Source: a virus. From it: a stretch of 64,000 nucleotides of DNA. This document shows, piece by piece, positions 1 to 63,079 of this stretch (its first letter is position 1; the number at the start of each line of letters is the position of its first letter). The notes beneath the pieces were generated by a model that was not told the DNA's origin, ran no database searches, and saw only the letters and a program-made list of their open reading frames with translations. The stretch lies in the IMG/VR virus record IMGVR_UViG_3300025133_000026, one strand, 5' to 3'. A program made the translations under genes and the position numbers.

Positions 1-339
1 CGATATTCCCTTCTAGGGAACATCCTGCACTCCTTACCCATGTGTACGCATGTGGGTAGGGAGATCAGGGTGAAATAGTTTCACTCTCCTTGCACAGAGG
101 TCCTGTGTCTGGTCTTAGACCAGGGAGACACCATGTCTACGGACATGGACATCCTGGCTGTATATGCCCTAGTAATAGGGTTTACGGCCTGGATCCTCTG
201 GCCTTGGATTTCCCCGTACCTGTCCCTTTTGGGGCCGGTACTGGGACTCCTTGGCTAGAGGACGTCCTAGTCTCTCCATCCATGCTTCTGGTGTGGGTGG
301 GGAGGATAGGGTGTAAGTAGTTTACATCTTCCGTGCATA

Positions 340-950
340 GCATAGCGAACAGTGTGCTGTGTATGGATTGCTGCCAGCTGGACGGCTGGTTGGCTTAAAT
401 CTGTTCAAATAACACAAGTAAAATTAGTTTTTAACAAGAACTAATCAAGCACGTGGCTACGCGGTTCAGCCGTTAGGACTCTAACCAAGTCCATGTAGAC
501 ATCCCGGTGTCTGGAAAAGCCTCTCCTCCTTCTTAGGATCGAGGAGGGGCTGTGCAGACTGCGGGGTGCAGTCGCGTAGGTCACAGTGCGTTTCTGTGGC
601 ACAGTCCCCTTTTGGAGAGACTGTTATGGATCCTGTCTGGGTTCTGTGGCTGCGTGCTTTGATTGGTTTTCTTGCTGAAACGCTCGATATCGTCGCTCTG
701 ACGATTAGTAGCACCAGTGAGTGCGGACTGTTTGACGACACCCCGTTCTCCCCCTTCACCTCCGTTGCCAGCGGAAGTGAGTCCCAGGCCATGAAGGCCA
801 ACCTGTATGCCAAGGATAAGGACAGAGTCCTGAGTCCGCAAGCCAGTGAGTGTGGGCACCTCACGATCCTCTTCAGCCATGCACTGAAGGGTCTCTACCA
901 TAACGGACTGACCATTGGTACGGTCGATTGCATGAGTCCACAACTCCAGA
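340..950 (+). ncRNA. candidate large structured RNA or leader
   Basis: Dense hairpins (AGCCTCTCCTC 519-529 / GAGGAGGGGCT 541-551; long-range TGCGGACT 722-729 / AGTCCGCA 833-840). The downstream gene's real start appears to be 962. Boundaries approximate. Confidence 0.4.
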
Positions 951-961
951 AAGGAGATACC

Positions 962-2773: not shown

Positions 2774-3254
2774 CCTGGTCCACGTCCTAGGCATGACGTA
2801 AAACTGCCTACCTTCTCCTTTCTCCTGGGTATCCAATAGGGTATCCAGGGGTTGGGTGAGGGTTAGCATGGTGCTAACTCAATAACCTCTAACTATAGGA
2901 GGTGAGAACCTATCTTTTAACCCAAGACCCTGATTTGTTAATCAGAGCGCAGCTAATGCTATGTCCCAGCGTTTATATCAACGTAGAGGCTGGGCGAAAA
3001 GGTCTACTAAACTAGGTTGAGTTGGAGTTGGAAGGGAGGAGAGGCGCGCGTCAGTGCTAACCCTATACATAGGAGAGAAAGAGAAAGGGCGAAGCCTCAC
3101 AGATAAGAGAAAGGTAGAGTGCTAAGAGAAAAGGTATACCAAAGAGGCGCAGAGGGAGGAAGAGAGGGCGCGAGGCTGAAGAGGCCTGGCGAAAAGCTCT
3201 TCCAAACTTGTGAGGGTCTCGGATGGACTGGGACTCGTTTCTTCGGGAGAAGAA

Positions 3255-3461
3255 GTGAAGGAATACAAGGCGGGCGACCGCTTGTCTCACATGGGGGTGG
3301 TGTGCCCCCCGTTGGGATTCGTGGTCAGCGCTGAGCCGCTCAGCATCTGTGTCCTGGTCTGGGACCAGGATGGAGACGACTCCATGGAGACCTGGGCGTA
3401 CGCGCCCGAGGCTGGGGAGCCGGACTGGCTTCTCGTCAGCGTGGAGCCAGTGGAACTCTGA
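3255..3461 (+). CDS. hypothetical protein
   Basis: GTG start after GGGAG; GC3 bias; follows motif copy 2. Confidence 0.65.
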   Translation: MKEYKAGDRLSHMGVVCPPLGFVVSAEPLSICVLVWDQDGDDSMETWAYAPEAGEPDWLLVSVEPVEL

Positions 3462-3512
3462 GGCAACTCGGGTTCCACGGAGGTAGGCCGAAAGGTCTAC
3501 CTAAACTTGTGA

Positions 3513-4212
3513 GAGGGATGGCTAAAAGGTAGGTGGTTCGATTCCACACTCACTCCCATGGGGTGGTTGGTACTCCTGGATGGTCAGTATGAAGCTGCTT
3601 TGGCGAGCAGTGGATGCAAAGAAGAAAGCACCTACGCCAGGGTGTAAGTAATCGGAACCCTCGACTTCCGTCAAACTGAAAGCATATGTCAGGCGGTTAG
3701 GGCACCTTAGGGTGGTTCCCATTGATGTAAAGGCTTCGGGGATTCCCAGCGGGATGACCGTGTTGCTGTAGTGGGTTGAGGAACTATCGCCCACACCCTT
3801 TAAATCTCTATCGTAGAGATAACTGGACTTGGCCAGTATAAAGAGACTATTAAGCCAAGAGCGTCTACGAGAGTAGGGTAGTGAATGGTGTTTAAGCCCG
3901 CGAAGGGAGGGAGTTACTGCTCCCGCGACTTACCCTGGGTTCATCGTGCAAGGCCATACTGGTGCTGTACACCCAGCATCGTCCTCCTTGTCGGGAGGTG
4001 GTTTGATCTTTCGAGATCGAATAGTAACCAGGAGCCGCTTGTGCCCTGGGAGACGAGCCGAGCCCCTGCGGTTCCCGCAATCAGTCTACTGAGACTTGTC
4101 ATCTCTTCAGTAAGTAGGGTGGTTGTGAATGAAGACACTGGTTAGGGTAAATGGAACTACCCGCAGGAGATTAGACACCTCCGAGACACCAGCGTTCTCT
4201 TATAGCACGAGA
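3513..4212 (+). ncRNA. candidate ~700-nt structured ncRNA
   Basis: No credible ORF; more than ten hairpins; bracketed by motif copies at 3481 and 4213. Confidence 0.55.
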
Positions 4213-4256
4213 GGGTAGGCCCGAAAAGTCTACCCATACTCATGAAGGGAGGAAAC

Positions 4257-4370
4257 ATGGAAAAGAAGCGAATTCTGAAGACCGTGGCCGAGGGGATTCT
4301 CCTCGTCGGTTGGGGATGGATCATGTGGATGGCGTTCATCCATTCCGTCTTGTTCCTGGGCGCTCAGTAA
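4257..4370 (+). CDS. 37-aa membrane peptide
   Basis: GGAGG RBS; MEKKRILKTVAEGILLVGWGWIMWMAFIHSVLFLGAQ; below track length cutoff. Confidence 0.65.
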   Translation: MEKKRILKTVAEGILLVGWGWIMWMAFIHSVLFLGAQ

Positions 4371-4541
4371 GGGCGTCCGGGGGAGGGTAGGCCAAAAGGT
4401 CTACCTAAACTTGTGAGAGTTCGAGACCGCCACATGGGTTCGTGGACGCCATAGGTCACATGCGACCTTGCGATAAAGTATAGGCGAAAATCTATACAAA
4501 GAGTTTCACTCTCTCATCTTCGATTCAATCAGGAGAATAGC

Positions 4542-4922
4542 ATGTACACACCCACGTTCCCGACCAGCATGAAGCAGCTGGGGCTTCGCGATGGCATCAC
4601 CAAGTGCCAGGAACAGATCAAGGAAGCCGAGGCCTTCCTCAGCAGCCTCAAGCGGGACAGCCAGGGCAAGTGGCGGAAGAATGGCAAGTTCGTGGCCAAG
4701 GCCAAGATCGACGCCATGGTCGACCAGCGCCACGGCGCCGAGGAGGGGCTCAAGTCCCTCAAGCTCCAGCTCCAGAAGCTCACGGGTCGTGTCTGGCGCG
4801 ACAAGCAGGTCCGTGGCCCCAAGAAGAAGAGCCACAGTCGGCGCGATCGGGAGCACACCACTCCCGAGCTGAAGGGGCGCATCCACGTTCCCGACAGTGT
4901 GCAGAAGATGCTGGCACAGTAG
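4542..4922 (+). CDS. basic hypothetical protein
   Basis: AGGAG RBS; GC3 bias. Confidence 0.8.
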   Translation: MYTPTFPTSMKQLGLRDGITKCQEQIKEAEAFLSSLKRDSQGKWRKNGKFVAKAKIDAMVDQRHGAEEGLKSLKLQLQKLTGRVWRDKQVRGPKKKSHSRRDREHTTPELKGRIHVPDSVQKMLAQ

Positions 4923-4969
4923 AGAGAAACAAGTAGTGGTAGGCCGAAAGGTCTACTATTACTTATGAG

Positions 4970-5350
4970 AGTCACCAAGCAGGACATCACCTCTGACTAC
5001 CAGCTGCGTCAAACAGGCCTTAAGACAAAGCACAGTGGGCGTATAGTACCTCTCGCTGAACTCTCAACCGGTAACCAAGCGGTTGCCGATCTTTGAGACT
5101 AACACCATGGCGACCACTGAAGATGGAATAGGTGGTTGAGCTTTAGGGTATCGTACGCATCCCTCATGGTCCTATTTTAGAAGCCCCCAAGTATGAAGCA
5201 ATGGTATATGTCAGGGGGGTAGATGCGCCGCATAGGTGACATCTATAAACGCTTCCAGAGAGACCGGAAAATCTCTGGTAAAACTGACATAAAGGACTAT
5301 GGCTTATCCAGCCATCTCAGGTCCATGGTGGGGTAAGAGTATTCCCCACA
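4970..5350 (+). ncRNA. candidate multibranched ncRNA upstream of tRNA-Arg
   Basis: Nested helices CACCATGG 5103-5110 / CCATGGTG 5323-5330, GTCCT 5169-5173 / AGGAC 5293-5297, TATGTCAG 5207-5214 / CTGACATA 5284-5291. Confidence 0.5.
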
Positions 5351-5355
5351 CCCAC

Positions 5356-5432
5356 GCACCCATAGCTCAGATGGATAGAGCATCGCTCTTCTAAAGCGAG
5401 GGTCTCAGGTTCGAGTCCTGATGGGTGTGCCA
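5356..5432 (+). tRNA. tRNA-Arg(TCT)
   Basis: Full cloverleaf; anticodon loop CTTCTAA; GGTTCGAGTCC T-arm; encoded CCA. Confidence 0.95.
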
Positions 5433-5632
5433 TGACTGTCTTCCCAACGTGTACACATAGATGGGTACGGAAAACGAGCGTAGTGGGGCGGCACCACAGA
5501 GACAGTAAATGATAGCGTCGTAGCTACTAACGCCCAAGTGCATTGCGCGTCTACGACAGGTGTTGATTTACCACCTAATGCACAGTAAATCGGATAGCCA
5601 GCACAATACCTGTCGTGGGTGTGTATGGCACA
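5433..5632 (+). ncRNA. candidate pseudoknotted RNA
   Basis: GTGCATT 5538-5544 / AATGCAC 5577-5583 crosses CTACGACAGGT 5551-5561 / ACCTGTCGTGG 5608-5618. Confidence 0.4.
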
Positions 5633-5635
5633 GAC

Positions 5636-5699
5636 GTTAGAGTAGTTTAATTGGTAAAACGCCCAGCCGGCAATGCAGGTTCGAATCCTGTCTCATACG
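5636..5699 (+). pseudogene. tRNA-like element with truncated anticodon arm
   Basis: Canonical D-arm (GTTTAATTGGTAAAAC) and T-arm (GCAGGTTCGAATCCTGT); only ~11 nt of anticodon arm; two acceptor-stem mismatches; no CCA. Confidence 0.6.
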
Positions 5700-5894
5700 T
5701 TGAAGTGATCGACAAAAGAGGAAAACGCGTAAGTACTCCACAAAGCGATCCCATAGCCATCTCAGGCGAAAAGGCTTGAATCCTGGGAACCATGTGCAGA
5801 GTCTTTCCCGACCCATAGTAGCCAATCTTCTCCCATAGGGCTCACAGGGTGACAGGTGAAAGGCTCTGTTACATGTATGAACAAAGGAATAAAC

Positions 5895-6071
5895 ATGAAG
5901 ATCATCACCATTGTCGCAGAGCACCTCGACTACCGCAGCGCCTGCGAAAACGGGCTTGTCGAACACTTCTTGACAAAGGGCTACAGGGTCCACTCCATCG
6001 TCCCTAAGATCAGCAGTGACGGCAGTAAGCCCATCACCACTGCCTTCATCGTCTTCATGGTCAAGAAGTAG
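5895..6071 (+). CDS. hypothetical protein
   Basis: AAGGA RBS before ATG5895. Confidence 0.65.
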   Translation: MKIITIVAEHLDYRSACENGLVEHFLTKGYRVHSIVPKISSDGSKPITTAFIVFMVKK

Positions 6072-6157
6072 GTTTCTACAACAAACAAGGAGAACAGCAT
6101 GACCAGCATCAAGCCCTACTGGACCATCGTCTGCTGCATCAAGCCCGGAGGTGGAGA

Positions 6158-6367
6158 GTGACCTCCGTCAAGCTCGATCTGAAACTCATCCAAGACAGCT
6201 ACAAGAATGCTTCTATCGAGGAGCAGAAGAAGTTGGTCGGCTGGATGGCCCTGGCAAAGCAGGCGGCAGAGAAGACTCTGCGTATCGTCAAACCATGGCC
6301 TGGGCGATTCTTCAAGCATCGCAAGGAACAGTACTGGAAGGCCTACGAGGTGATCTGTGAAGAGTGA
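6158..6367 (+). CDS. hypothetical protein
   Basis: GTG start with GGAG RBS; operonic overlap. Confidence 0.65.
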   Translation: MTSVKLDLKLIQDSYKNASIEEQKKLVGWMALAKQAAEKTLRIVKPWPGRFFKHRKEQYWKAYEVICEE

Positions 6368-6590
6368 GAACCTCCTACTGGCTGTGGTAGGAATCGCAAT
6401 TGTAGCTCTGTTCCCCACCATCCTGAAGGCAATTGCATTCGGGTTGTTCATGGGGCCAGTGTACTATATCGCGGGTAAGGTAGCAGCAGCAATGAGCGCC
6501 AAGGAGAAGCAAGTCGTTACGGGCGCTAAGCGTGTCTACGTCCAACAGACAGGCACGACAACGGAATATAGCGGGAGAGTCAAGGCATAG
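6357..6590 (+). CDS. small membrane protein, paralog of 24467..24718
   Basis: Shared LKAIxxGLFxGPVxYxA segment. Confidence 0.7.
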   Translation: MKSENLLLAVVGIAIVALFPTILKAIAFGLFMGPVYYIAGKVAAAMSAKEKQVVTGAKRVYVQQTGTTTEYSGRVKA

Positions 6591-6648
6591 AGTCACTGAG
6601 TAGGCCGAAAGGTCTACTCATACTCATGAACTTTTTTAGGGAGAACGT

Positions 6649-6903
6649 ATGAATTCCTTCTTCGAACTAATTTCGCTCGTGCTCGTCGGCGTCCTTGTCC
6701 TGTTCGGCGTCTCGGCAGGCGCTCACTACCTACAAGGACACTGGGGTGATCACATCATCCCCCATGAGTCTGGTGCTGCAGTGTACATCGCAGGAGACTC
6801 CTGTACGGTGAACATGAAGCAGGAAGAGAACCTGGAGGAGATTCAGGAAAGGCTCAATTGGTGTATGAGCAAGCACTTCGTGTGGAAGGAGTGGGTGGAG
6901 TGA
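6649..6903 (+). CDS. membrane-anchored hypothetical protein
   Basis: GGAG RBS; N-terminal hydrophobic helix. Confidence 0.7.
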   Translation: MNSFFELISLVLVGVLVLFGVSAGAHYLQGHWGDHIIPHESGAAVYIAGDSCTVNMKQEENLEEIQERLNWCMSKHFVWKEWVE

Positions 6904-6962
6904 AAGACATCATCATCCTCATCGGCATCGTCGGAGCAATCTACTTCTTCTTTGTCGGTTAG
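6900..6962 (+). CDS. 20-aa hydrophobic peptide
   Basis: GTGA overlap with upstream stop; MKDIIILIGIVGAIYFFFVG. Confidence 0.4.
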   Translation: MKDIIILIGIVGAIYFFFVG

Positions 6963-7007
6963 GCGAAAAGGTCTAATCAAACATTCAAACAACAACAAGG
7001 AGAGCAT

Positions 7008-7304
7008 ATGGCGCTCGTCAGTTCAACCTACCCCGACCTGGTGGTAGCAGCAGAAAACCAGGGCTTGGCTCTGGACCAAGTCTTCGCAGATGTCAGTACC
7101 GACCCTGGCACCGGTGAAATCACGGCAGTCGACCCTCTCGTCACCCTCACGGATGACGGCGAGATTCCGATGACCGACGATGGCACTGTCATCACCAACA
7201 GCTACATGGAGGCTCTCGCAGAAGGAGCCCCCGAGGGTGAGATCATCGAAGGCATGAGCGGGGCCAGCGATGGTGGCATGCTCAGCTTCCTCCCCTTCTT
7301 CTAG
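7008..7304 (+). CDS. highly acidic 98-aa protein
   Basis: AAGGAG RBS; 18 D/E and no K, R or H. Confidence 0.8.
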   Translation: MALVSSTYPDLVVAAENQGLALDQVFADVSTDPGTGEITAVDPLVTLTDDGEIPMTDDGTVITNSYMEALAEGAPEGEIIEGMSGASDGGMLSFLPFF

Positions 7305-7349
7305 AAAAGCTCTGAACAAATACTCGTACTAAACAACAAGGAGTACAAC

Positions 7350-7739
7350 ATGAATAAGGTCATTCTCATGGGTCGCCTCGGTGCAGACCCGGAGCTGCGT
7401 TCTACCAGTGGTGGAACCGCAGTCTGTAATCTTCGAATCGCTACCAACGAACCCCGCAAGAACCAGGATGGCACCTGGGGGCAGCACACCGAGTGGCACA
7501 GCGTCACCGTCTGGGGCAATCGGGCCAAGGCCTGCGCTGACAACCTGAGGTCGGGCCGTCAGGTCCTGGTCGAGGGCTCCATCCGTACCCAGAAGTGGCA
7601 GGACAGCGAGGGTCGAGACCGGTACACCACCAAGGTCAACGCCAGCAACGTTCAGTTCCTGGGCAGCAAGAGCGGAGGGTCCAGCTCTTCGGCAGCACCT
7701 GCGGCCGAGGACATCCCCTCCGACGAGATTCCCTTTTAG
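7350..7739 (+). CDS. ssb: single-stranded DNA-binding protein
   Basis: MNKVILMGRLGADPELR, HTEWHSVTVWG, acidic C-terminal DEIPF tail. Confidence 0.97.
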   Translation: MNKVILMGRLGADPELRSTSGGTAVCNLRIATNEPRKNQDGTWGQHTEWHSVTVWGNRAKACADNLRSGRQVLVEGSIRTQKWQDSEGRDRYTTKVNASNVQFLGSKSGGSSSSAAPAAEDIPSDEIPF

Positions 7740-7785
7740 AGGGTGAGTGAGGGTAGGCCCAAGGGTCTACCTTTACTTGTGCCAC

Positions 7786-7859
7786 AGGGGTGTCGTCAAG
7801 TGGCCTAAGACGCTGGTTTTTGGTGCCAGTATACGTAGGTTCGAATCCTACCACCCCCA
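7786..7859 (+). tRNA. tRNA-Gln(TTG)
   Basis: Cloverleaf; loop TTTTGGT; 3' end reads ACC-T (CCA incomplete). Confidence 0.9.
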
Positions 7860-7892
7860 CCTATCAACCCCTTCAACCTATAGGGACAAGCC

Positions 7893-8165
7893 ATGCACAT
7901 TCGTCTTTTCAAGGGTGACCTTGTCATCTGGGTTGGTTTCGAGGCAGCAGAAACTGTCCTGAATGATTCCATGTGGGCAGACTACACCATCTGTATGTCT
8001 GGTGGAGAATACCAGTACTACGGTATTGGCAAGAGCGAGGAGGAGGCGCTCGCTAACTTCCTCTTCGAAAACCTCAAGGACACCCCTATCTGTAACCCAA
8101 AGATGGGTGGATGGGCATCACACGGCGAACCCTACGACGAGGACTACGAATTCTCTATCAGATAG
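7893..8165 (+). CDS. hypothetical protein
   Basis: ORF with GGA RBS between two tRNAs. Confidence 0.7.
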   Translation: MHIRLFKGDLVIWVGFEAAETVLNDSMWADYTICMSGGEYQYYGIGKSEEEALANFLFENLKDTPICNPKMGGWASHGEPYDEDYEFSIR

Positions 8166-8206
8166 GTCCTAGAAGTAGAGAAGACGAAGATTCACATTAA
8201 CCTTAT

Positions 8207-8278
8207 GGGTCTGTAGCTCAGCGGTAGAGCAAGAGTCTTTTAAACTCAAGGTCGAGAGTTCGATCCTCTCCAGTCCCA
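8207..8278 (+). tRNA. tRNA-Lys(TTT)
   Basis: Cloverleaf; loop CTTTTAA; 3' end reads ACC-T (CCA incomplete). Confidence 0.9.
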
Positions 8279-8296
8279 CCTTTTACAGGAGAAAGC

Positions 8297-8737
8297 ATGA
8301 ACAAGTGCTACTGCGGCGAAGGGCGCTGCACTACTGTATACGACACTGCAGTCGTAGACGCTATCAACAGTGCGGCCAAGCTTCTCACCGCTCTGGGCAC
8401 CCTCCGAGACATGATGACGGAGGAAGAACCCTACACCAAGAAGATGCTCACCAAACATCGGGTCGAGCTGCGTGTACTTCTCAACAACCTCAAGAACCTA
8501 TAGGGATAATATATGAAGACCATTACCAGAGAAGAGATTGACATGAGGCTGCCCAGTGGAGCGGCTCGTGATGTAGGGAAGATTCGTGGAAGTGCAGGAG
8601 GCTGGCGCGCCGAGTCGCGGTACACGGCCAACTCCAAGGACCTGGGTATTGACAAGGACCACATCTGTGCAGAGACCGGGGCCTTCGTGATGGGCCTCAA
8701 GAAGAAGTACAGGGTTGGTGGAGCCATCCGACACTAG
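8297..8737 (+). CDS. two hypothetical ORFs (8297..8503, 8513..8737)
   Basis: RBSs and GC3 bias; last GC-rich genes of the early block. Confidence 0.7.
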
Positions 8738-8862
8738 TCCCTTGACAGCCCCCTCCCCCGGAGGGGGTACAGGGGGAGGTAAAGTAGTAGAGTAAGCCCC
8801 GAGCGAAGCGAGGGGAACACTCTACTCTTTTCTATTCTAAACCAGTAACAAAAGAAATAAGG

Positions 8863-9423
8863 ATGTTTTATCAATTTATTGCTCTTATTTGGTTCTTCGC
8901 AGCTATTATCCAATTCAGTACGGGTGGAATCATAGAAGGTGGTATCTTCGTTTGCGCAGGTTATCTTGCTCTTATCACTGCAGAACAACAAAAGGAATGG
9001 GTTGACGGCATCATCTTGCCGCCAAGAAAGCTTCTACCCCGTGTATAGAGAAGCTTTTCCTCTGTTTGAAGGAGAAAGAATCTGCTAAGTGTGTGAAATC
9101 ATTAGACTATTCCGCACCCTACCGCGTACATCCCCTTGTAGAGGGCATCTAGAGGAGATATCATGACTTTGTTGGAAGAAATCAGAGAGATTCAGAAGTT
9201 CGCCCAGCTCAAAGAAGAAGAATTGGCCTTTAAGAATGAGAAGAAGACTGTCTGGAAGGAGCTTATTACAGCGGCGAAGCGCTTTCCCTATTCAAAAGGA
9301 ATGAGATATGAGGGTGCTCTCAGCCACAGAACAAGAGAATGGTTGAGAAAGCAGGAACTCAAGGTAGAGATACCTGATTTTGATATCACTAGAAAAGTCT
9401 ACCACATCATCTCTTGGGATTAG
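8863..9423 (+). CDS. two hypothetical ORFs (8863..9048 membrane; 9163..9423)
   Basis: Track ORFs with AAGGA/GGAG RBS. Confidence 0.65.
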
Positions 9424-30241: not shown

Positions 30242-30589
30242 CTATGGGCCGGTACTGGCTTCGACTTGGTTATTGGAATAAACAATACAGGTAGTCCTTG
30301 TAAGAAAAGACTTTAAAGACTTACATAAAACTAAACGGCAACGATAACGTAGCTCTCGCTGCATAGCGAGTGGGGTTTCTAACTACCCTATGTCCAAAGT
30401 TAGATGTGCACTTGGTCTTAGCAGAGAAATAATAGACTAAAATGGTTACCCTGTTTTTGGCAGGTGGAATTCACTTTTCCTGGTTCCGAATTGGTTGGAA
30501 ATAGAACCTAGATGACTTGTTAGTTCAAAGCAACTAAACTAAACTTGTGACAATATTGTTTATAAAGAAACTGAGGACATGGGTTCGAT

Positions 30590-31252
30590 TAACAAAATGG
30601 TCGCTTCAGTGAGTAATCACTGTCGAATAAGAGAGCTCATACGGTGAACGCTCAGCATGTAATGATGGTGCCAACGCCGTACGGTGAATCCGAAAGGAGT
30701 AAGCCGTCTAGAGACTTATAGGTTCCTAAGACTAAATGTTAAGGAATACTAGGATGCAAAAAAATCTTCTTCAAAAAGAAGTTTTTTGGCTTTCATTTCA
30801 TCAGAATATTTTCCATTTCTAGGGGTCACTTCTAGATAAGTTGTGCAAATAAGTTTAGCTCTTCTTATCTTTGATTTTTCTCTTAAGTAAGGAGATATCT
30901 CTAATAAAAAATTAATTGCAGTGCGGTGTTTTAAACGCCAAGACCAAGATTGTTTGTGATGAGATTTGTAAACCTTTTGTTTTACAATAAATCCTCCAAA
31001 TTCTTGGACTAAGAAATCAAGAAGTTCTTTACTTGTTGATGTCATAGATACTGTTGGCGCACGATACTTGTCCCGACTATGAGGGCGGCTTAACGTTACA
31101 GTTCCTTCCCCATCAAACAATCCTGCAGTATAAGCCAATTTTAATTCTTTTTGCATAATACGCTCTCCTCTTCTTGGATATAGTATAACATAAACCCTGT
31201 CCAAGAAGAAGAAGGAATAGTCCACGCCATAATGAAAATTATGGAATACGTG
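30590..31252 (+). mobile_element. group I intron in tmRNA T-loop
   Basis: Exon ends in U pairing with GTCG guide (30600-30603); terminal G31252; P4 TACGGTG/CGCCGTA; R-like GAGACTTA 30711; S-like GAAGGAATAGTCC 31211. Confidence 0.88.
30749..31156 (-). CDS. single-motif LAGLIDADG homing endonuclease, antisense within the intron
   Basis: YTAGLFDGEGTV; 135 aa; own GAGGAG RBS and TGnTATACT extended -10 on the minus strand. Confidence 0.9.
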   Translation of the reverse strand: MQKELKLAYTAGLFDGEGTVTLSRPHSRDKYRAPTVSMTSTSKELLDFLVQEFGGFIVKQKVYKSHHKQSWSWRLKHRTAINFLLEISPYLREKSKIRRAKLICTTYLEVTPRNGKYSDEMKAKKLLFEEDFFAS

Positions 31253-49193: not shown

Positions 49194-50378
49194 ATGGATT
49201 CAAGAAATTTTCAAAGAGTACTAGATATTTACTTCGAAGCGGATGTGCCTCTTCACGTCTGGGGCGCCGGTGGAATCGGCAAGTCTCAAATCATTGAAGC
49301 AGTTGCTGAAAGGAAAGGTCACCACATGGAAGACCTACGTCTCGCAACACAGGAAGTGGGAGACCTTATTGGTATTCCCAAACGTACAACCCAAGAAGCT
49401 TTACGCATCTCTGGACATGATGAAGAAGGCAATGCCATTATCGAAACCTACACTGCTGATGTCACTACTTGGACTCAGCCGACTTGGTTCCGTCGTATTT
49501 GGAACAAGTATGCCCTTGGGTTCCGAACCGTGCTTTTCCTCGACGAAATGGACCGTGCCAACAAAGAAGTTATTCAGGTAGCTTACCAGCTAACAACGAA
49601 AAAGCAACTTCACGAGCACGAGCTGCCCCCTGGGACCATCATCATCGCAGCAGGTAACCCTCCAACTGAAGATTACATGGTAGAGACTTTCGACGACGCT
49701 ATGTGTACTCGTTGGGCACACGTTAAGCTTGATGCTAACGTCCCTGCGTGGCTTACTGAAGTCGGACCTCGTATGGATGAAGAAATCACAGGCTTCATTG
49801 CAACTGCAGGCAAGGAATATCTTTTCCACAAAGCAGCTGCTTGGGATATTGAAACTGTTAGAATGCCTACGCCTCGTGGTTGGGAGTTCGTAAACCGAGT
49901 TTACGGTGCTTGGAAGAAGCACGGTGGCGGCGACCAACTACTTCTTATGACTTGTGTCGGTTCTATCGTTGGCGCTGCAGCTGGTCGAGAATTCGTTCAG
50001 TCTCTTGAGACTCAGTGGATTACCAGAGATCAGATTCTTTCTGGAGCAAAGAACTACCAAGACCTTAAAGCAAGCTCTGCAGCTTCTGGTCAGATTCTTC
50101 GACTCGTTAACGAATGCTCTCTCTATCTCGAAAAGAAAGACTTTAAGAGCAAGAAGAAAGAGAAAATGGTTGTTGACGCAAGTAAGGTTCAAGCCTTTGG
50201 TGCATTCCTCGATGCCCTTACTCAGGATAAAACCGAGCTTTCTGTCTCTCTAACCAAGAGCATCATGAAGCGCGAGCGTGAAGTACTCAAGCTTATTCTC
50301 ACGAAGGTTTCACCTTCCACGAGAAGTCGCTACAACGAACTCTTCACTCTCAGTCACAAGGTTAACGCATCTTATTAA
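49194..50378 (+). CDS. MoxR-like AAA+ ATPase
   Basis: GAGGIGKS, DLIGIP, LFLDEMDRA, AAGNP, PTPRGW. Confidence 0.92.
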   Translation: MDSRNFQRVLDIYFEADVPLHVWGAGGIGKSQIIEAVAERKGHHMEDLRLATQEVGDLIGIPKRTTQEALRISGHDEEGNAIIETYTADVTTWTQPTWFRRIWNKYALGFRTVLFLDEMDRANKEVIQVAYQLTTKKQLHEHELPPGTIIIAAGNPPTEDYMVETFDDAMCTRWAHVKLDANVPAWLTEVGPRMDEEITGFIATAGKEYLFHKAAAWDIETVRMPTPRGWEFVNRVYGAWKKHGGGDQLLLMTCVGSIVGAAAGREFVQSLETQWITRDQILSGAKNYQDLKASSAASGQILRLVNECSLYLEKKDFKSKKKEKMVVDASKVQAFGAFLDALTQDKTELSVSLTKSIMKREREVLKLILTKVSPSTRSRYNELFTLSHKVNASY

Positions 50379-50383
50379 CACAC

Positions 50384-50414
50384 GAGAAGGGGAGGGTAAC
50401 TCCTCCCCTTTCTC
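50384..50414 (+). terminator. hairpin between the AAA+ and vWA genes
   Basis: GAGAAGGGGAGG/CCTCCCCTTTCTC. Confidence 0.55.
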
Positions 50415-50445
50415 ATTCAAAACTACTACACAAGTAGGAGAATAA

Positions 50446-51657
50446 ATGAGTACTTTTAAAGACCTTCCTGCTGAAGAAAAAGTCAGCAAATGGCTTGCTA
50501 CTGTTCTTGTAGGGAGTGATGCAAACATGCAGTGGTATGCTGCTGCACTATCTCAATTCGCCTTTGGAACAACAAGTGAAGTTCCTACGATGGCTCTTAC
50601 TATGAGCTTCGAAACTTTACAACCAAAAATTGTTTACAATGTCAAGTTTGTTAAAGACCTTGACTTTCCTGAATTCGGAGCAATTCTAATTCATGAACTC
50701 TGGCACTTTCTTAATCGCTCATTTATGCGTCAAGAATTTCGTGACCCAACTGGGTGGAACTTTGCAACTGACAGTGCAATGAACTGGCATATTGAGAGAG
50801 ATTTTTCTCATAAACCTCTAGTTCAACTTCCAGACAATTGTCTTCAAGCTCCTAAGGAAATGAAGCAAGAAGACGTTTACTCAGAAAATCTTTACAAAGT
50901 AACAACAGGCCAAGGTAAAGACAAACAATCAGGACAGCCCGGCGCGGGTTCTCCCCTAGAGCAAGCCTGGGATGATTTTCAGGCTGGAAAGACTAAGCTA
51001 GTTGATGACCACTCTCTTTGGGGTACATTCAACGACGTTCCTGAAGAAGCGATTGGAAACAAAGTTGTTGAGATTATTGACAACGCAACAAGATTTGCAG
51101 GAAGCGAACCTCATGGAGCAGCAAAGATTCTTCGTGAGTTGCTTGAGTCTAAGGTTCCTTGGGGTCAACTACTTCGTAGATTTGCAGGTGACTACCTTAA
51201 GATTGGTAGCAGGCCATCCTGGAAGCGTTATAACAGACGTATGGGAGAAAGCCAGCCCGGCAAAATTATTAAGCGTGGTGGAAAGCTTGTTATCCTTGTA
51301 GATACTTCTGGCTCTACAGCTGGAGACCAAGCACAGTTCTGGGGAGAGATTGACTTTGTTGCACGAAGTTTTGAAACCTGGGTCATCCAATGTGATGCTG
51401 CAGTTCAAGGCAAGCCCATTAGATATCATAGAGGGGTTGGGAAATCTCTTGAGATTAAAGGCTATGGCGGCACCGATATGAATCCAGGTATTGAAGCAGC
51501 AAAGAAGTTAAAGCCAGATCTCTTTGTTTGTTTTACTGACGGATACCTTTTCGGAGAACCTGTCCCAACTGGAAAACCAGAGCTTTGGGTTATCTGTCAG
51601 AATGGCGTAGAAGTCAAAAACAGACGATGTATCTTCATCGAGAGCAAAGATAAATGA
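50446..51657 (+). CDS. DUF2201-type metallopeptidase + vWA protein
   Basis: HELWH; VDTSGS; GGTD; FTDG; the usual partner of the MoxR-like ATPase. Confidence 0.9.
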   Translation: MSTFKDLPAEEKVSKWLATVLVGSDANMQWYAAALSQFAFGTTSEVPTMALTMSFETLQPKIVYNVKFVKDLDFPEFGAILIHELWHFLNRSFMRQEFRDPTGWNFATDSAMNWHIERDFSHKPLVQLPDNCLQAPKEMKQEDVYSENLYKVTTGQGKDKQSGQPGAGSPLEQAWDDFQAGKTKLVDDHSLWGTFNDVPEEAIGNKVVEIIDNATRFAGSEPHGAAKILRELLESKVPWGQLLRRFAGDYLKIGSRPSWKRYNRRMGESQPGKIIKRGGKLVILVDTSGSTAGDQAQFWGEIDFVARSFETWVIQCDAAVQGKPIRYHRGVGKSLEIKGYGGTDMNPGIEAAKKLKPDLFVCFTDGYLFGEPVPTGKPELWVICQNGVEVKNRRCIFIESKDK

Positions 51658-52423: not shown

Positions 52424-53734
52424 ATGGACTCTATTGCTTTTACCCCAACATATAATCTGAAATCTAGTAATCCTATTTCAAAAATGGGAAAAAAGTATCT
52501 TCAGTCAATTCATCAACTAAGTGCTTTGTATTGTGTAACTAAATCTCAAAGAATAGATGCAGAACTATTGAAAAATGAAATGTATAGTACTTTAATATAT
52601 CCAATATTATTTACAGTAACTACAGATACAGACATTTTTCATAGAGTGGTCGCTTCACAAAATGTACTTACAAAACTAATTAAAAATACAGAACAAGGAG
52701 ATATGTTTTTGAGTCTTCCTCCTTGGGTGAATGATTTAGAAGATCAAAGCGATGCCGAAATCCATGGGACAACTATTTTTACCCAAATTGAAGGGAAAAA
52801 TATAGTCTTCTCTCATCCAGAGACAGTTGTGGGCCTTGCAGATTTTGGGATACAACTTACAAAAGGATGTAATTCAAAATACTGGGCTCTTCCCATTTCT
52901 TTAAAGAAAGATTTTACAATACCTTTATCTATAGGAGAAACAGTAGCTGCATTTACAGAAGCAGAACACCAACAATTTCTTAAAATTTATCAACAAACTT
53001 TACAGGGAAATATATATGTTGGAAATCTTATTCATAATGCTGCTCCTAGTACTTTAAAATATTCTCTTTTTTCTATCAAAGAAATAGGATTATTTCTTGG
53101 GTATATCAATTATATACTTCTTTATTCAAGCAGTTACCCCACCCTTGGTGCTGAACTTCACAATGCATTGCTAGATTCGAAAAGTACTTCAGATCAGATC
53201 AATAATTTGTTTGATCAAGTTAATAAAAGAAAATCATGGATTTCCTCGATTGCTTCTTATCCTACAATTAAAACAAATATAATTCAAATTCAAAACATTG
53301 CAAAACAAGTATCGATAGCAAGTCTTTCTTACTCAGCCTGTATTGGACCTGTCAGTCTCCCTGAAAACTCAATGCAAACAAAAGAAAAGAAAGATATTAA
53401 ATATAATATTCAATTCAGAATTCTCGATAAAAATAGACTAAGGGTTCAGTGTAAAAAGACTGGTGGATACGCATCAGAAGCATCTTATATATTTGACCTG
53501 TCCTCATCTTCAATCCTCTTACAAGCAAAGAATCTTTCTGACTTTAAAGAAAGAGATGTTCAGTTACTTATTCAAGAAAAACAACTTCAACATCTTTCTT
53601 ATGAAAAATCTTCATTTTATAAAGGCAGTGACCAATATTATTGTAAAGGAATATATGACCCAGCAAAAGGTCTTCTTGTCAGTATCAACGGAACAAAAAC
53701 ATTAATTGCAAAAGCAACAGAACTACAATTCTAA
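52424..53734 (+). CDS. 436-aa hypothetical protein
   Basis: ATG after the 52380-52409 hairpin. Confidence 0.75.
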   Translation: MDSIAFTPTYNLKSSNPISKMGKKYLQSIHQLSALYCVTKSQRIDAELLKNEMYSTLIYPILFTVTTDTDIFHRVVASQNVLTKLIKNTEQGDMFLSLPPWVNDLEDQSDAEIHGTTIFTQIEGKNIVFSHPETVVGLADFGIQLTKGCNSKYWALPISLKKDFTIPLSIGETVAAFTEAEHQQFLKIYQQTLQGNIYVGNLIHNAAPSTLKYSLFSIKEIGLFLGYINYILLYSSSYPTLGAELHNALLDSKSTSDQINNLFDQVNKRKSWISSIASYPTIKTNIIQIQNIAKQVSIASLSYSACIGPVSLPENSMQTKEKKDIKYNIQFRILDKNRLRVQCKKTGGYASEASYIFDLSSSSILLQAKNLSDFKERDVQLLIQEKQLQHLSYEKSSFYKGSDQYYCKGIYDPAKGLLVSINGTKTLIAKATELQF

Positions 53735-53744
53735 AGGAAAATCA

Positions 53745-54506
53745 ATGAGTAGCGGATATCATTATGGCGGATCAGGCTTTGGACAAAATATTGGTTGGTG
53801 TTTTGACACCAAAAATATAGAATTTTGGGGCTCATCAAAATCAAAATTAGATGATGTGTTAGATTCCACAGGTGAAGACTTTGCAGATACTGACCTTATC
53901 ATTAACTGCACTGGGCTCCCCTATACTATTAAACCTTTTATTAAGTCTGCTCCGACATGGCTTTTAAAAGAAAACAAAACAGAAAAAAGTTTGTCTCTTC
54001 CGCAACCACATCAATTAGTTCTTGAATGGAAAGACTTTAGTCCTCCCCCTAGGCATTATGAAAACCTAGATTTTTGGAAAAATATAGTAACAAGAGCAGA
54101 AGAACATGGAATCAAACGAATTTTTGTTTGCTGCCAAGGAGGTAAAGGACGTACTGGGACTGCTCTTTCTGCTCTTATGATGGCGACAAACATGGCCGAG
54201 GATCCATTCCAGGCTATTAATCGAGTTAGAGAAAACTATACAGAAAAAGCAGTAGAAACAACTAGTCAAACTAAATATCTCATCAACTGTTTCTATCCAG
54301 AAGGAGAAGAAAGAACTGAAGTTTATGATTATTTAGATCAGTTAGAAAAACAACGCCGAGCAGCTGAAAAATCAAAGACAACCACTAAATGGAAGCGTCC
54401 ACAATCAAATCAAGCTATAGCCGATGATGATCTCTATGAGGATGTTCTTGATGATGATACAGAAGATTCTGTCTCTTTTAAAACGTCTTATTCCAGCTAC
54501 AAGTAA
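53745..54506 (+). CDS. Cys-based (PTP/dual-specificity) phosphatase
   Basis: CX5R loop CQGGKGRTG; AI..VR..Y...AVET..Q. Confidence 0.9.
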   Translation: MSSGYHYGGSGFGQNIGWCFDTKNIEFWGSSKSKLDDVLDSTGEDFADTDLIINCTGLPYTIKPFIKSAPTWLLKENKTEKSLSLPQPHQLVLEWKDFSPPPRHYENLDFWKNIVTRAEEHGIKRIFVCCQGGKGRTGTALSALMMATNMAEDPFQAINRVRENYTEKAVETTSQTKYLINCFYPEGEERTEVYDYLDQLEKQRRAAEKSKTTTKWKRPQSNQAIADDDLYEDVLDDDTEDSVSFKTSYSSYK

Positions 54507-58599: not shown

Positions 58600-60037
58600 T
58601 TGTTTATGATTATAAAATCTTACACTGATTCAGAATGTGTTGTCCTTTGTATCTTCTGTACTATAACTTATCGTTTAATAAGTAATTTTATTTTAGAGTG
58701 TTCTCTTGATCATGGCAATGGGGCTCATGATTATATAATCATGAGGCCTGGCGATAATATTATTCCAGGAGATCTTATTGCCTCAAACTGGTTATACCCA
58801 CTCACCAAGTGGCAAGAAAATCTTAAGAAAGAAATAATAGAAATTGAATATAAATATATAACTATAGGGAAAGAGTTTCCTAAGATACTTCAAATACTGC
58901 AGGAAAGGATTAAACGATGGGATACATCAGAGAATTAGACCTGCCACCTGGCAGTAAATATAGATGTATATACGGTGTTCATCTTAAAATTAAAAGAAAG
59001 AGGGAGCACTATACTGGATGGACTTTTTATGCTTCTGCAGACCATCTCAACAGATGGAGACTAACACCTACTCTAGGGTATGGAAAAACATATTTGTCTT
59101 CCGAAGCACAAGAAGAATTTGTAAAAATTCTCCTTAACCTAGAGTATGAGCACCTAACTTCTGGTGATAAGACTTACTTCCCTAATCTATATCCAGTACT
59201 GAGAAAATTAGAAAATGATGCAGATAAAAAAGGTTGAAGATATCTATGAATGGAAACCTATCCATATTCATATAGAAAAAAATAGTTATCAACTGTCAAC
59301 AGAGTGGTCTCGAAATGAATCGGTAACAAACCTCTCGCCTTTTTATCGAAAAGATTTATTAAATTGCTTGCAAAACTTACAATACAAAGCTATAATAACT
59401 GAAGATAAAGAGTTCTTTCCAGAACTCTTACCACTATTAAAAGCATTAGAAGAAATAGATCAATAATTAATGACTGAAAAATATATTCTCAAAGTAAAAA
59501 CCTGGGCCCCAATTAGTTTTCATAAAAATGAAGATGATAGAATCATTGCTTTCGCAGACAAGCCGCGCAAAAAATATATTCTATCAGAAAAACCACTCTA
59601 TCTTTCAGGGTTTGACGGCTGGGCTGATCATTGGTTATGCAAAACAAAAGAAACTTTAGAAGATTCAATATATGAGTCTCTTCTTTGTGGCAATAAAGAA
59701 CAATTAGATTTAATAGAAAGACTTTTATTTCTTACCAAGAAAGCAATTTATTTTCAAACTATTAGTAATCGAAAAAATATATATCAAAATGAATAGAGAA
59801 GAATTAATCCAAAGTATAGAACACTCCTTAAACTCATCTGGTCTATCAGACAGAGAGAAAGTACGTGCACTTAGCAATGTCTTGATTGACTATGGATGTG
59901 CACTTGAGTCTATATCTGAACCAGTTACCACCACCACACTTAAAAAGATAGAGCAAGACTATTATCAGTCCCCAACCTTGGGTAAAGCTCTTATCATGCA
60001 AGGAAGCCTCATGCTTACATGGGGTGCAACACATTAA
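58600..60037 (+). CDS. run of ORFs 58600..58938, 58917..59237, 59215..59466, 59470..59796, 59789..60037
   Basis: First four share a late E/L-x-Y-x-x-(I/L)-x-x-G/E helix. Confidence 0.65.
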
Positions 60038-60066
60038 ACACAAATAAAAATAACAGGATAAATCAT

Positions 60067-60594
60067 ATGGAAACATTGTATATCAACCGTCCCAATCAGT
60101 ACGCTATTTACAAAGGCATTAAAGGAAATAACGGAGCCATTCAATTTAACTTGATTCCGTTTGACCCCGCGCGTGCAAACGTAGATGATGATCGCAAACT
60201 GCAAGAAAAAGACAAAAAAGGTTGGTTGCTTATCGATGCAGCCAGTGCTTCTGGACCCAATCAATATGATTGGAGCACAGATATTAAATTCTCTATGTCT
60301 GAAACAGATATTGGCAAGTTTCTTGTTGGTATCGGTCGAATGGGGAGTGAAGGAGACACTTTAGTTAATATCTTTCACAAACATGAAAAGACAGGGGCCA
60401 CTAAGAAACTAATCATTACACAAGGCAGAGTGTATCAAGGTAATCCAACCTGGATGTTTGCTCTTCTTTGTACAGACAGTACAGGCACTCGAAATGTCAA
60501 TGTACCTATTAGCAAAGACGAAATGCTTGTTCTGAAGCTTCTGCTTGAAGCAGCAGTTCCCTCTATTCTTGGATGGAGTGCTCGTAGTGTCTAA
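60067..60594 (+). CDS. Whirly-like ssDNA-binding protein
   Basis: YAIYKG, A.A.G.NQYDWS, FS.SET.IG, VPISKDEMLVL...VPSILGW. Confidence 0.75.
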   Translation: METLYINRPNQYAIYKGIKGNNGAIQFNLIPFDPARANVDDDRKLQEKDKKGWLLIDAASASGPNQYDWSTDIKFSMSETDIGKFLVGIGRMGSEGDTLVNIFHKHEKTGATKKLIITQGRVYQGNPTWMFALLCTDSTGTRNVNVPISKDEMLVLKLLLEAAVPSILGWSARSV

Positions 60595-61274
60595 GCCAAT
60601 TGTAAATGCACATATCTTCGCTCAACTTTTTGACGAAATGGCTTGGGGTGGTCTAGTCTTACTAGAAAGTTCTGAATTTGAAAAACAACAAAGATTAGAA
60701 TTTACACTTCCCTTACCCGCTAACGCTGATCCTTCTTATGCTGAAGAGTCAGTTGTTTATGAGGCTAGCAAAATGCTTCCCATGAGATTAAAATGGCCTG
60801 ACTATATTGTCACAAATTTTATTGTCTCTTCTGAAGAAGTAAAGAAAAGAGTTGAATCTAACGAACACATAAGTAAAAATATGAAACAATATGCCTACCA
60901 AACAACCGTCAGAAAAAACGATAGCACTGGAGAATGAAAAGGGAGAGATGCTTAACCTCTTAGATTTGGTCTCACAAATCTTAGACAAAAGCACATCATC
61001 TCAAATAGATGAAAAATCTCAACTTCTTTCAGCAATTAGTGCAACTCAAATTGTTAAAGATATGGGACAACGAGGATCAGATGAGGTTATTGCCTTATAT
61101 AAAATCTATCCAAACTTGATACCTTTACTGGCTGGTGTATTCCAGACAGGGCTTAAACTTGGCCTATTCATTGCACGAAAAAACATTAAGATTACATTAC
61201 AGGAATCTAATGCAGAAAGTGATCAGTCAAGTAGCCAAACTAATAGTTCCAATAGTCATACCGATTCTAATTGA
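60587..61274 (+). CDS. two hypothetical ORFs 60587..60937, 60948..61274
   Basis: RBS GGGAG before 60948. Confidence 0.65.
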
Positions 61275-61345: not shown

Positions 61346-61687
61346 ATGAGTGATTTGAAAGTAACCAATGTAAAGTTCTGGCCGCGCACCGGTAACGGTG
61401 CCCTCAAGGCTTTTGCCGATGTAGAGTTTAACGGAGAGATGACCGTCAAGGGATTCTCTGTGTTCTCTGGTCAGAACGGCATCTGGGCGAAGGCCCCTTC
61501 CGACAGAGTAGAAAAGAATGGTGAGACGCAGTATTACCCGCGTATCATGTTCCGTTCTACCGGCGAGGAGAAGAGTACTCATCCAGTGCTCAAGGCCATT
61601 GTCGATGCTTATACTGGTGGTTCGTCTGCCCAGACTAAGTCTACCCCTCAACCGGCAGATGCAGGTCTTGGTAGCGATCCCTGGTAA
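61346..61687 (+). CDS. spoVG: SpoVG-family nucleic-acid-binding protein
   Basis: VTNVK, LKAFADV.F, V.G..V..GQNG.W...PS; AGGAG RBS. Confidence 0.85.
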   Translation: MSDLKVTNVKFWPRTGNGALKAFADVEFNGEMTVKGFSVFSGQNGIWAKAPSDRVEKNGETQYYPRIMFRSTGEEKSTHPVLKAIVDAYTGGSSAQTKSTPQPADAGLGSDPW

Positions 61688-61708: not shown

Positions 61709-61742
61709 AAGGGGCGGGGAGAAATCTCCGCCCCTTTGTTAT
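61709..61742 (+). terminator. intrinsic terminator
   Basis: AAGGGGCGGGGAGA/TCTCCGCCCCTT followed by TGTT. Confidence 0.75.
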
Positions 61743-61915: not shown

Positions 61916-62576
61916 GTGATAAACTGGGGAAGTCCTTCCAATATAGTTTTATCCAAGATTGATTTAAGACCTGGATTCTCCTGGAGACTTACTTACAAAT
62001 GTTGGGGTTGGCATATACACTTCTTTCATAAAAGCAATGGTACTTGGTATTGGCAACACAATCCAGACATACTTAGCTACGCACGACCATTAACAATTCC
62101 CCCCGAGCCTGTACGTCGAGAGGAATTTAAAAATTGGATAAAAGATAAACTTTATATTCAGTTAATAACCCCAACAAAAAACAATGAACTTATAGAGGTT
62201 TTAGAAACAATGCTTGTTGAAGCAGAGGATTGAGGTGGGTTTGCCACCACCATATAAAATGAAGCTAGAGAAAGTTAAAAACACTTGGGTTTTAACTTTT
62301 CGTACATTTGGAAACCATTGTATTTCTATTAACAAATCACAAGAAGGATGGTTCTTCGAGACTATCGGCAGAGGTCTTGCCATAACAGATTCTATCGACA
62401 AGCTTCTTCTTCGAACATATCTATCTCATTATCCATATCTATATAGATTTAAAGCATGGCTAGAAGAAGAACTCTATACAGCATGGATGACAGATAATCC
62501 CGAACACTTAGAGATTTTGGAAATTCTATTAAATAATACTAAAAAGCATATACAGCGGTGGGAAACAAAACTATGA
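61916..62576 (+). CDS. two hypothetical ORFs 61916..62233, 62214..62576
   Basis: W-rich N-terminus; late LY.QLIT/LY.AWMT helix. Confidence 0.65.
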
Positions 62577-63079
62577 AAGAAACACTTGAAACCCTTAAAA
62601 AAGGGAAAGAAAAACTTAAAGAATTCTCTACTCTTATTGGGACTCACTATCTTGTTGATGGGAAGACTCCCGATCAGTGGAGACAAGAATTTACTATTAA
62701 CATAGGAAAAGACCCGAACATTGAAGAAGTGCGCCGGACTTCTGCCGCTCTTGTTCGGCTCATCAATATTGCATCTTTCTATAAAGCTAATGCTCAATTA
62801 GTCTTTGATGGTATTAGTCATGGTTCTCACGACCAGTACCTCAGTGCTTTTGAAAAGCAAGTAGACAAATATAAGGTTGATGGTAAACGACTTCCATCAC
62901 AGAAAACACTTGAGTCTCTAGCAGAAAGCTCAATGAAAGATCTTAACTCTGCTAAAGCTAATGCTGGAATGAAGCTTCGCTTCTGGAAAGATATTGTCCA
63001 AGGTCTTGTTGAGCAAAGGAAAAGCTTAGAAATGATTATGTGGTCAATCAATATTGAAATGAAGAAAGAAACATACTGA
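62573..63079 (+). CDS. helical protein, possibly UvsY-like recombination mediator
   Basis: Coiled C-terminal ...QRKSLEMI...EMKK pattern; weak. Confidence 0.4.
   Translation: MKETLETLKKGKEKLKEFSTLIGTHYLVDGKTPDQWRQEFTINIGKDPNIEEVRRTSAALVRLINIASFYKANAQLVFDGISHGSHDQYLSAFEKQVDKYKVDGKRLPSQKTLESLAESSMKDLNSAKANAGMKLRFWKDIVQGLVEQRKSLEMIMWSINIEMKKETY

Follow-up and report, generated by a model that had tools for sequence, protein, structure and literature searches.

Plant Whirly proteins are single-stranded DNA (ssDNA)-binding tetramers that guard organelle genomes against error-prone repair (PMC3245945), and structures reveal that the ssDNA is held between the sheets of neighbouring chains in a sequence-independent manner (PMC7549692). 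In addition, lysine 67 of the plant KGKAAL motif drives assembly into 24-mers (PMC3245945), and according to a 2026 preprint, strand exchange by bacterial-type organellar RecAs is stimulated by WHY1, WHY2 and WHY3 but not by the canonical mtSSBs (10.64898/2026.10.24.761589). In plant papers these proteins are called plant-specific or "eukaryotic components" of organelle nucleoids (PMC11359715, PMC11712025, PMC4758235). Trypanosome MRP1/MRP2 and PUR-alpha contain the same general beta-beta-beta-beta-alpha repeat, and MRP1/2 also assemble into a four-chain whirligig (PMC7549692); these proteins bind RNA or serve other roles. A Whirly-type fold has also been described for a phage-encoded protein, ChmC of the Chimalliviridae (PhiPA3 gp61; PhiKZ gp67), a homotetramer that binds single-stranded nucleic acid with a preference for RNA, is required for infection, and handles mRNA at the phage nucleus. 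ChmC differs from Whirly proteins in having three-strand instead of four-strand repeats and a disordered, N/G-rich, condensate-forming C-terminal tail, and it shows no detectable Whirly sequence similarity (PMC11077065). In the literature that we searched, no publication dealt with phage proteins related to Whirly by sequence; the phage papers found there concern ChmC. What was already known is an automatic UniProt label, "Whirly transcription factor", on one protein of an uncultured Caudovirales phage (A0A6J5NR37), and we found no paper describing that protein.

A Whirly-family protein encoded by a large phage

The gene under study lies in a window of 64,000 nucleotides (the whole stretch of DNA that was analysed), which is read from the minus strand of an IMG/VR virus record (IMGVR_UViG_3300025133_000026; 151,482 bases; estimated 85% complete) and spans its positions 87162-151161. 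The carrier is a large uncultured tailed phage, being a virus record of 151 kb with genes for a baseplate wedge subunit and for virion proteins on the other arm. At 60067-60594 on the + strand we observed an intact frame with a stop-free translation of 175 residues (P0001). A Shine-Dalgarno-like AGGA is located 8 nt 5' of the ATG at 60067 (60055-60058, + strand), and the closest homologs have their start there as well; for these two reasons we preferred this start over an alternative ATG at 60019, which has no Shine-Dalgarno site and would result in an overlap with the upstream gene.

The initial annotation, made from the letters alone, proposed that this protein resembles plant Whirly proteins from end to end. 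All of the strings that it quoted from the phage protein are present in the order given (YAIYKG, ASASGPNQYDWS, FSMSETDIG, IFH, KKL, VPISKDEMLVL and VPSILGW), and the plant strings that it set beside them proved correct and in the same order upon MAFFT alignment with Solanum WHY1 (P0190; YSIYKGKAALTVEP, APAAGVRQYDWS, FSLSVTEIG, FFHDP, IPVTKAEFAVL and PYLLGW). The ordered motifs common to phage and plant proteins are YxIYKG, YDW, FxLS..(D/E)IG, FH, K.L, PI(S/T)..E..VL and LGW. A HMMER comparison with the Pfam Whirly model, one of the checks that had been suggested, returned PF08536 at 43.1 bits (curated cut-off 23; E = 4.7e-11), and the same match was recovered on the whole genome record. When all PDB chains were searched with phmmer, the significant matches were to Whirly proteins only, namely AtWHY3 (4koq) and AtWHY2 (4kop; both E = 1.7e-8), AtWHY1 (4koo; E = 5.6e-7), p24 of potato PBF-2, i.e., StWHY1 (1l3a; E = 7.9e-7), and StWHY2 (3n1h). 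At the level of sequence, this resemblance is far beyond chance. The Pfam alignment is limited to residues 45-157 (profile positions 24-134 of 136). It does not reach the N-terminal strand, owing to an insert of 4 residues within the YKG motif and to a first loop that is longer. At the place of the plant KGKAAL motif the phage protein reads YKG-IKGN-NGAIQF, such that an Asn and not a lysine is aligned to the position of K67; two other phage members (P0064 and P0082) retain YKGKGA/YKGKAA. Despite the shorter HMM alignment, the term "end-to-end" is justified by the fold comparison, in which the Foldseek alignments cover 166-178 columns against the 175 residues of the protein.

A first AlphaFold model built from three sequences (pLDDT 71) was replaced by one built from 147 homologs (pLDDT 94.9; pTM 0.87), which is confident up to residue ~170 of 175. 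The model contains two sheet-plus-helix repeats: strands 12-15, 24-30, 53-63 and 73-77 followed by helix 79-90, and strands 98-105, 112-119, 129-137 and 140-148 followed by helix 150-168. The predicted chain thus has the two four-stranded antiparallel sheets, with a helix after each, by which a Whirly fold is recognized. The Whirly domain begins at residue 12 and the chain ends 5-7 residues past the last helix; in comparison to plant Whirlies, to which it is homologous in sequence over the whole domain and 21-26% identical, the phage protein lacks both the transit peptide and the C-terminal tail of the plant proteins, and an acidic C-terminal docking tail is also absent. The best Foldseek matches in the PDB were 4koq, 1l3a, 4koo, 4kop and 3n1h (E = 1e-9 to 1e-8; TM 0.66-0.79), and those to PUR-alpha and MRP1/2 were far weaker (TM 0.38-0.57; E = 5e-5 to 1.6e-3; identity 6-14%). 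The best viral structural match, found in BFVD, was the auto-named A0A6J5NR37 (E = 7.3e-11; TM 0.70/0.86; 30% identity), which is phage-borne and of the same family and belongs to another, shorter subgroup (141 aa). Quantification of conservation across the 147 homologs, 146 of which individually pass the Pfam Whirly model, revealed that H104 is invariant and that G52, W69, D81, K113, E152 and W170 are conserved in at least 90%. A search of PHROGs with the protein gave a "tail protein" family as its sole match (E = 0.14), which we treated as noise.

A tetramer prediction had also been suggested as a check. Four copies of the chain were predicted to assemble into a ring, with an ipSAE of 0.92 compared to 0.09 for the best of three controls, a contact agreement between runs of at least 89% and a partner pLDDT of at least 88. 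Helices 79-87 and 150-172 make up the predicted interface, through which every copy meets its two neighbours (copy 1 contacts copies 2 and 4); this resembles the helix-centred four-chain ring of plant Whirlies. When the tool was calibrated, 20 of 30 proteins solved as one-chain pairs attained this mark, compared to 1 of 23 solved as single chains; since plant Whirly tetramers have already been solved, the result may reflect likeness to them and is not proof, and we refer to the helix-held homotetramer as a predicted one. Judged by the Pfam match, the PDB sequence matches, the predicted fold and the predicted tetramer, the product of 60067-60594 is a true member of the Whirly family in an unexpected host range. 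It is set apart from ChmC, going by the published description of the latter, in being a Whirly protein at the level of sequence and in lacking the condensate-forming tail.

Gene neighbourhood and conserved company

The Whirly gene is the second gene of a local block that consists of a small ORF (hereafter F1), Whirly, two further small ORFs, a SpoVG-family gene and a terminator-like hairpin, and the closest relative (L027; 55% identity) has its genes in this order too. F1 (59789-60037, + strand; 82 aa) lies immediately upstream of Whirly and has no Pfam or PHROG match. An all-against-all blastp comparison of 11 phage loci revealed that Whirly is directly preceded by an F1 homolog in nine (L003, L004, L013-L018 and L027), the two genes often abutting or overlapping. 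The F1 proteins share the motif GNLGYxLGASIxG...YY..PTLG.ALMLQG..T.W, and the F1 product is a candidate partner protein of Whirly. The two ORFs that follow Whirly in the ORF list (60545-60937, 130 aa from a TTG, with a later ATG start possible; and 60891-61274, 127 aa; both + strand) have no Pfam or PHROG match either. In L027 an ORF of similar size to the former comes next after Whirly, and a 129-aa gene occupies the position of the latter. The last gene of the block (61346-61687, + strand) matches the SpoVG family (PF04026; E = 8.1e-8; 32.7 bits, cut-off 29.6), members of which bind DNA as well as RNA. SpoVG genes are found near Whirly elsewhere too (L027 2449-2799; L004 3385-3855; L020 647-976; and the contig that encodes P0082), at a distance of one to three genes in the window, L027 and the P0082 contig, and of several kb in L004 and L020. 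The block is closed by the hairpin at 61709-61736 (+ strand; 12 pairs, 8 of them G-C), a pattern match from a consensus scan.

A second conserved gene, F2 (62558-63079, + strand; 173 aa), is syntenic with Whirly, being located a few genes downstream of it in 8 of the 11 loci (alignment A5) and also present on the mis-binned contig described in the next section. It encodes a helical protein with no Pfam, PHROG or PDB match, and an F2 profile gave chance matches only when run against the PDB. A hint from a protein atlas that F2 could be UvsY (21% of one cluster carry UvsY) was rejected, as hhalign against T4 UvsY gave a probability of 0.14 and Pfam UvsY is absent from the genome.

Beyond the 3' end of the window, and co-directional with Whirly, the record encodes ribonucleotide reductase (RNR), RecA, a DnaE-type Pol III alpha subunit, an Mre11-like phosphoesterase and a PD-(D/E)XK nuclease; ThyX, GMP reductase and a DnaG-DnaB primase-helicase are carried on the same arm. 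The Whirly gene heads this co-directional replication/recombination arm. The RecA is of the bacterial type (E = 2e-107) and its gene (record positions 82574-83620) is ~7 kb from Whirly. We also noticed inteins in the primase-helicase, where a LAGLIDADG endonuclease is present, and in the Mre11-like phosphoesterase (record positions 60560-64267 and 74999-77083, outside the window). A canonical OB-fold SSB is encoded at the other end of the window (7350-7739, + strand; PF00436, E = 1.6e-36), with 45-54% identity to phage SSBs. It is the sole PF00436 match of the genome, and the Whirly protein itself does not match this model.

Two scans of IMG/VR yielded ten further viral records with a Whirly homolog, nine of which are fragments (24-65% complete). 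All ten encode RecA, and DnaE was present in each of the five Whirly records tested. RecA and Whirly are not adjacent; they are separated by ~9-12 kb in the four records compared. A HIRAN-domain protein (L003 10072-10623; Pfam E = 1.3e-6) is encoded two to three genes downstream of Whirly, with homologs in L013, L015, L016 and L018. In this sub-lineage the HIRAN gene is followed by genes for a 590-aa AAA ATPase and a DUF1257 protein, and ClpP is present as well; tblastn detected no HIRAN protein, 590-aa AAA ATPase or DUF1257 protein in the 151-kb phage. Since DnaE is common to all of them, and ClpP and F2 are partly shared, the Whirly phages look like one lineage, which in turn means that the co-occurrence of Whirly and RecA may be inherited and not functionally enforced.

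Distribution and origin of the phage family

A word-indexed protein search returned two relatives only. In contrast, an exhaustive HMMER search with a three-sequence profile recovered 503 clusters (50% identity) at an E of 1e-3 or below, of which 160 had an E of 1e-10 or below. Nearly all members are 140-200 residues long with a domain start near residue 5-40, and hence nearly all lack a transit peptide. The sole eukaryotic-looking members are P0100 and P0114, which have long Ala/Gly/Arg-rich leaders and the motif YKGKAA(V/L)QF; P0159, from the same cluster as P0114, is encoded on Tara marine metagenome contigs with an FtsJ gene adjoining. In a subgroup of phage Whirlies (P0016, P0018, P0023, P0091, P0095, P0099 and P0109), the first hairpin contains an insert rich in cysteines (CxxC...C) that resembles a zinc ribbon added to the Whirly domain. 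Family members are also encoded on metagenome contigs of 25 kb and 194.5 kb, which are large-phage-like.

Among 50,697 GenBank phage records, neither a DNA search nor tblastn with P0001, P0015 and P0074 as divergent queries gave a match. Whirly, together with DnaE, RecA and often ClpP, SpoVG and an AAA ATPase, appears to mark a coherent lineage of uncultured large phages that is absent from the GenBank phage records. In 185,579 species genomes, patterns for the close family matched nothing, and a consensus-motif DNA pattern matched one contig of 25.7 kb, QMTU01000002.1 (L010/L023), assigned to a "Thermoplasmata archaeon" MAG. This contig is co-linear with the phage, encoding Whirly, F2, RNR, RecA (49% identity), GMP reductase, DnaE (35% identity over 1137 residues) and the Mre11-like protein; because of this co-linearity we consider it most likely a mis-binned phage contig and not an archaeal copy of Whirly. 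No genuine cellular prokaryotic Whirly was seen in this sampling, which was limited by the patterns and not exhaustive. The phage homolog singled out by the initial annotation is real, but it is neither unique, as ~500 clusters exist, nor unlabelled, as UniProt auto-names one member.

In a quick tree of 167 rows the eukaryotic sequences formed one clade (SH-aLRT 93), as they did in a careful tree of 70 rows (94/93; 95% of bootstrap trees); the plant homologs named in these trees are angiosperm WHY1 only, with WHY2 and named algal sequences missing. The IMG/VR sequences are scattered through the remainder of both trees, and in the 70-row tree the window protein groups with P0002 and P0005, outside the eukaryotic clade. 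Support for the branch that positions the eukaryotes relative to the phage groups was 77 in the 167-row tree and 22/81 in the 70-row tree. Without an outgroup the root cannot be placed, and given this weak backbone as well, the trees do not indicate the direction of transfer, although the earlier claim that a phage homolog bears on the origin of Whirly was fair. The greater diversity on the phage side fits a long residence in phages, although the sample was drawn with a phage profile. It is conceivable, albeit on the doubtful side, that Whirly was originally a phage family and partner of bacterial-type RecA, and that the ancestor of green algae and plants acquired it from such a phage. If so, the cooperation of Whirly and RecA in plants would have been inherited from phages and would not be a plant invention. 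There is accepted precedent for such a phage origin in the phage-type organellar RNA polymerase and in Twinkle. The existence of a large and diverse phage-borne branch raises the question of the source from which plants obtained the family.

Probable role and further features of the window

We think that the phage Whirly probably binds ssDNA as a tetramer and serves the phage RecA as its cognate accessory in recombination-dependent replication or repair; we infer both its binding to ssDNA and its cooperation with RecA. We favour this reading because the phage has a plant-like trio of Whirly, bacterial-type RecA and canonical SSB, which coexist in plants as well (10.64898/2026.10.24.761589). 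The role in phage replication or recombination suggested at the outset is also in keeping with a gene that heads the RNR-RecA-DnaE-nuclease arm and with the finding of RecA in 10 out of 10 other records. Several points speak against our reading: Whirly and RecA may co-occur through common descent, their genes are ~7-12 kb apart, the KGKAAL motif is altered, an acidic docking tail is absent, and Whirly-fold proteins such as ChmC can prefer RNA (PMC11077065), with SpoVG, from a family that binds both DNA and RNA, in the same block. In the mechanism that we envisage, each chain would adopt the two-repeat beta-sheet plus helix Whirly fold, and four chains would close into a ring via helices 79-87 and 150-172 in the manner of plant Whirly tetramers, with the beta-sheets free for ssDNA. 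Whirly would be produced together with its small upstream partner F1 and SpoVG, would coat resected or displaced ssDNA, and, as an accessory to the bacterial-type RecA, would promote accurate strand exchange and suppress spurious annealing. The ordinary OB-fold SSB of the phage would serve the replication fork, and in relatives in which no canonical SSB was detected, Whirly may cover both jobs.

Alternatively, Whirly could be the main replicative SSB on the lagging-strand template at the DnaE replisome, in place of the OB-fold SSB. The Whirly gene does share its arm with DnaE and the primase-helicase, and PF00436 was found in none of the ten other Whirly records, including a complete genome of 197.7 kb with direct terminal repeats (G001), which also gave no gp32 or Enc34/gp2.5-type match in searches whose controls were both silent. 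Because of these silent controls, the seeming lack of any other SSB in the relatives is a weak point in favour of such a role, and nine of the ten relatives are fragments. Moreover, the 151-kb phage carries its normal SSB, and Whirly has no SSB-type acidic tail with which to dock replisome partners. We consider this role unlikely here, and more likely in relatives without an OB-fold SSB. Even less likely, in our opinion, is that Whirly mainly binds RNA and acts on the stability, processing or translation of phage transcripts, in the way of ChmC or of the RNA-related role of maize WHY1. The precedent of ChmC, a Whirly-fold homotetramer that prefers ssRNA and is needed for infection (PMC11077065), speaks for it, as do the SpoVG gene in the same block and the richness of the window in RNA elements (tRNAs, tmRNA and a Pistol ribozyme). 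However, ChmC has no detectable Whirly sequence similarity (PMC11077065), and the phage protein is directly homologous in sequence to the plant clade that binds ssDNA; the disordered C-terminal region of ChmC has no counterpart in a model that is confident almost to the chain end, and the conserved company of the gene is DNA-metabolic (RecA, DnaE, RNR and HIRAN). We find it highly improbable that Whirly is a sequence-specific transcription factor or a nucleoid-compacting protein acting on phage or host genes, the former being the function first proposed for PBF-2. The Pfam family bears the name "Whirly transcription factor", and PMC4758235 cites work in which PBF-2 was described as binding a single-stranded promoter element and acting as an activator, and work linking plant WHY1 to nucleoid compaction. 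Binding of ssDNA is, however, independent of sequence in the structures (PMC7549692), and the neighbourhood gives no hint of transcription control, the co-occurring genes being those of recombination and replication.

Whirly, RecA and SSB of this phage make up a natural minimal system for the 2026 claim that it is Whirlies, and not canonical SSBs, that partner bacterial-type RecA (10.64898/2026.10.24.761589). Phage Whirlies are small and lack a transit peptide, and so they should express easily, which would lend them to the study of how the tetramer handles ssDNA.

The SSB gene at 7350-7739 is placed in an atypical segment of the window (1-9000), with 50-66% GC compared to 35-40% GC elsewhere. 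Frames that are open on both strands and have no Pfam match were seen in this segment (566-2869), which also holds a Pistol ribozyme (3822-3883) and four tRNAs; it may represent an acquisition, a region rich in RNA elements or a chimera of the assembly. The window as a whole contains 10-11 tRNA genes, all on the + strand, with ten sites between 5356 and 31449, and a tmRNA at 30254-30591 (Rfam RF00023; 58 bits, gathering score 47). Further downstream, a MoxR-like AAA ATPase gene is followed by one for a DUF2201 metallopeptidase/VWA protein (49194-51657), with a protein-tyrosine-phosphatase-like gene nearby (53706-54506), and DUF2201 was found on the P0082 Whirly contig too.
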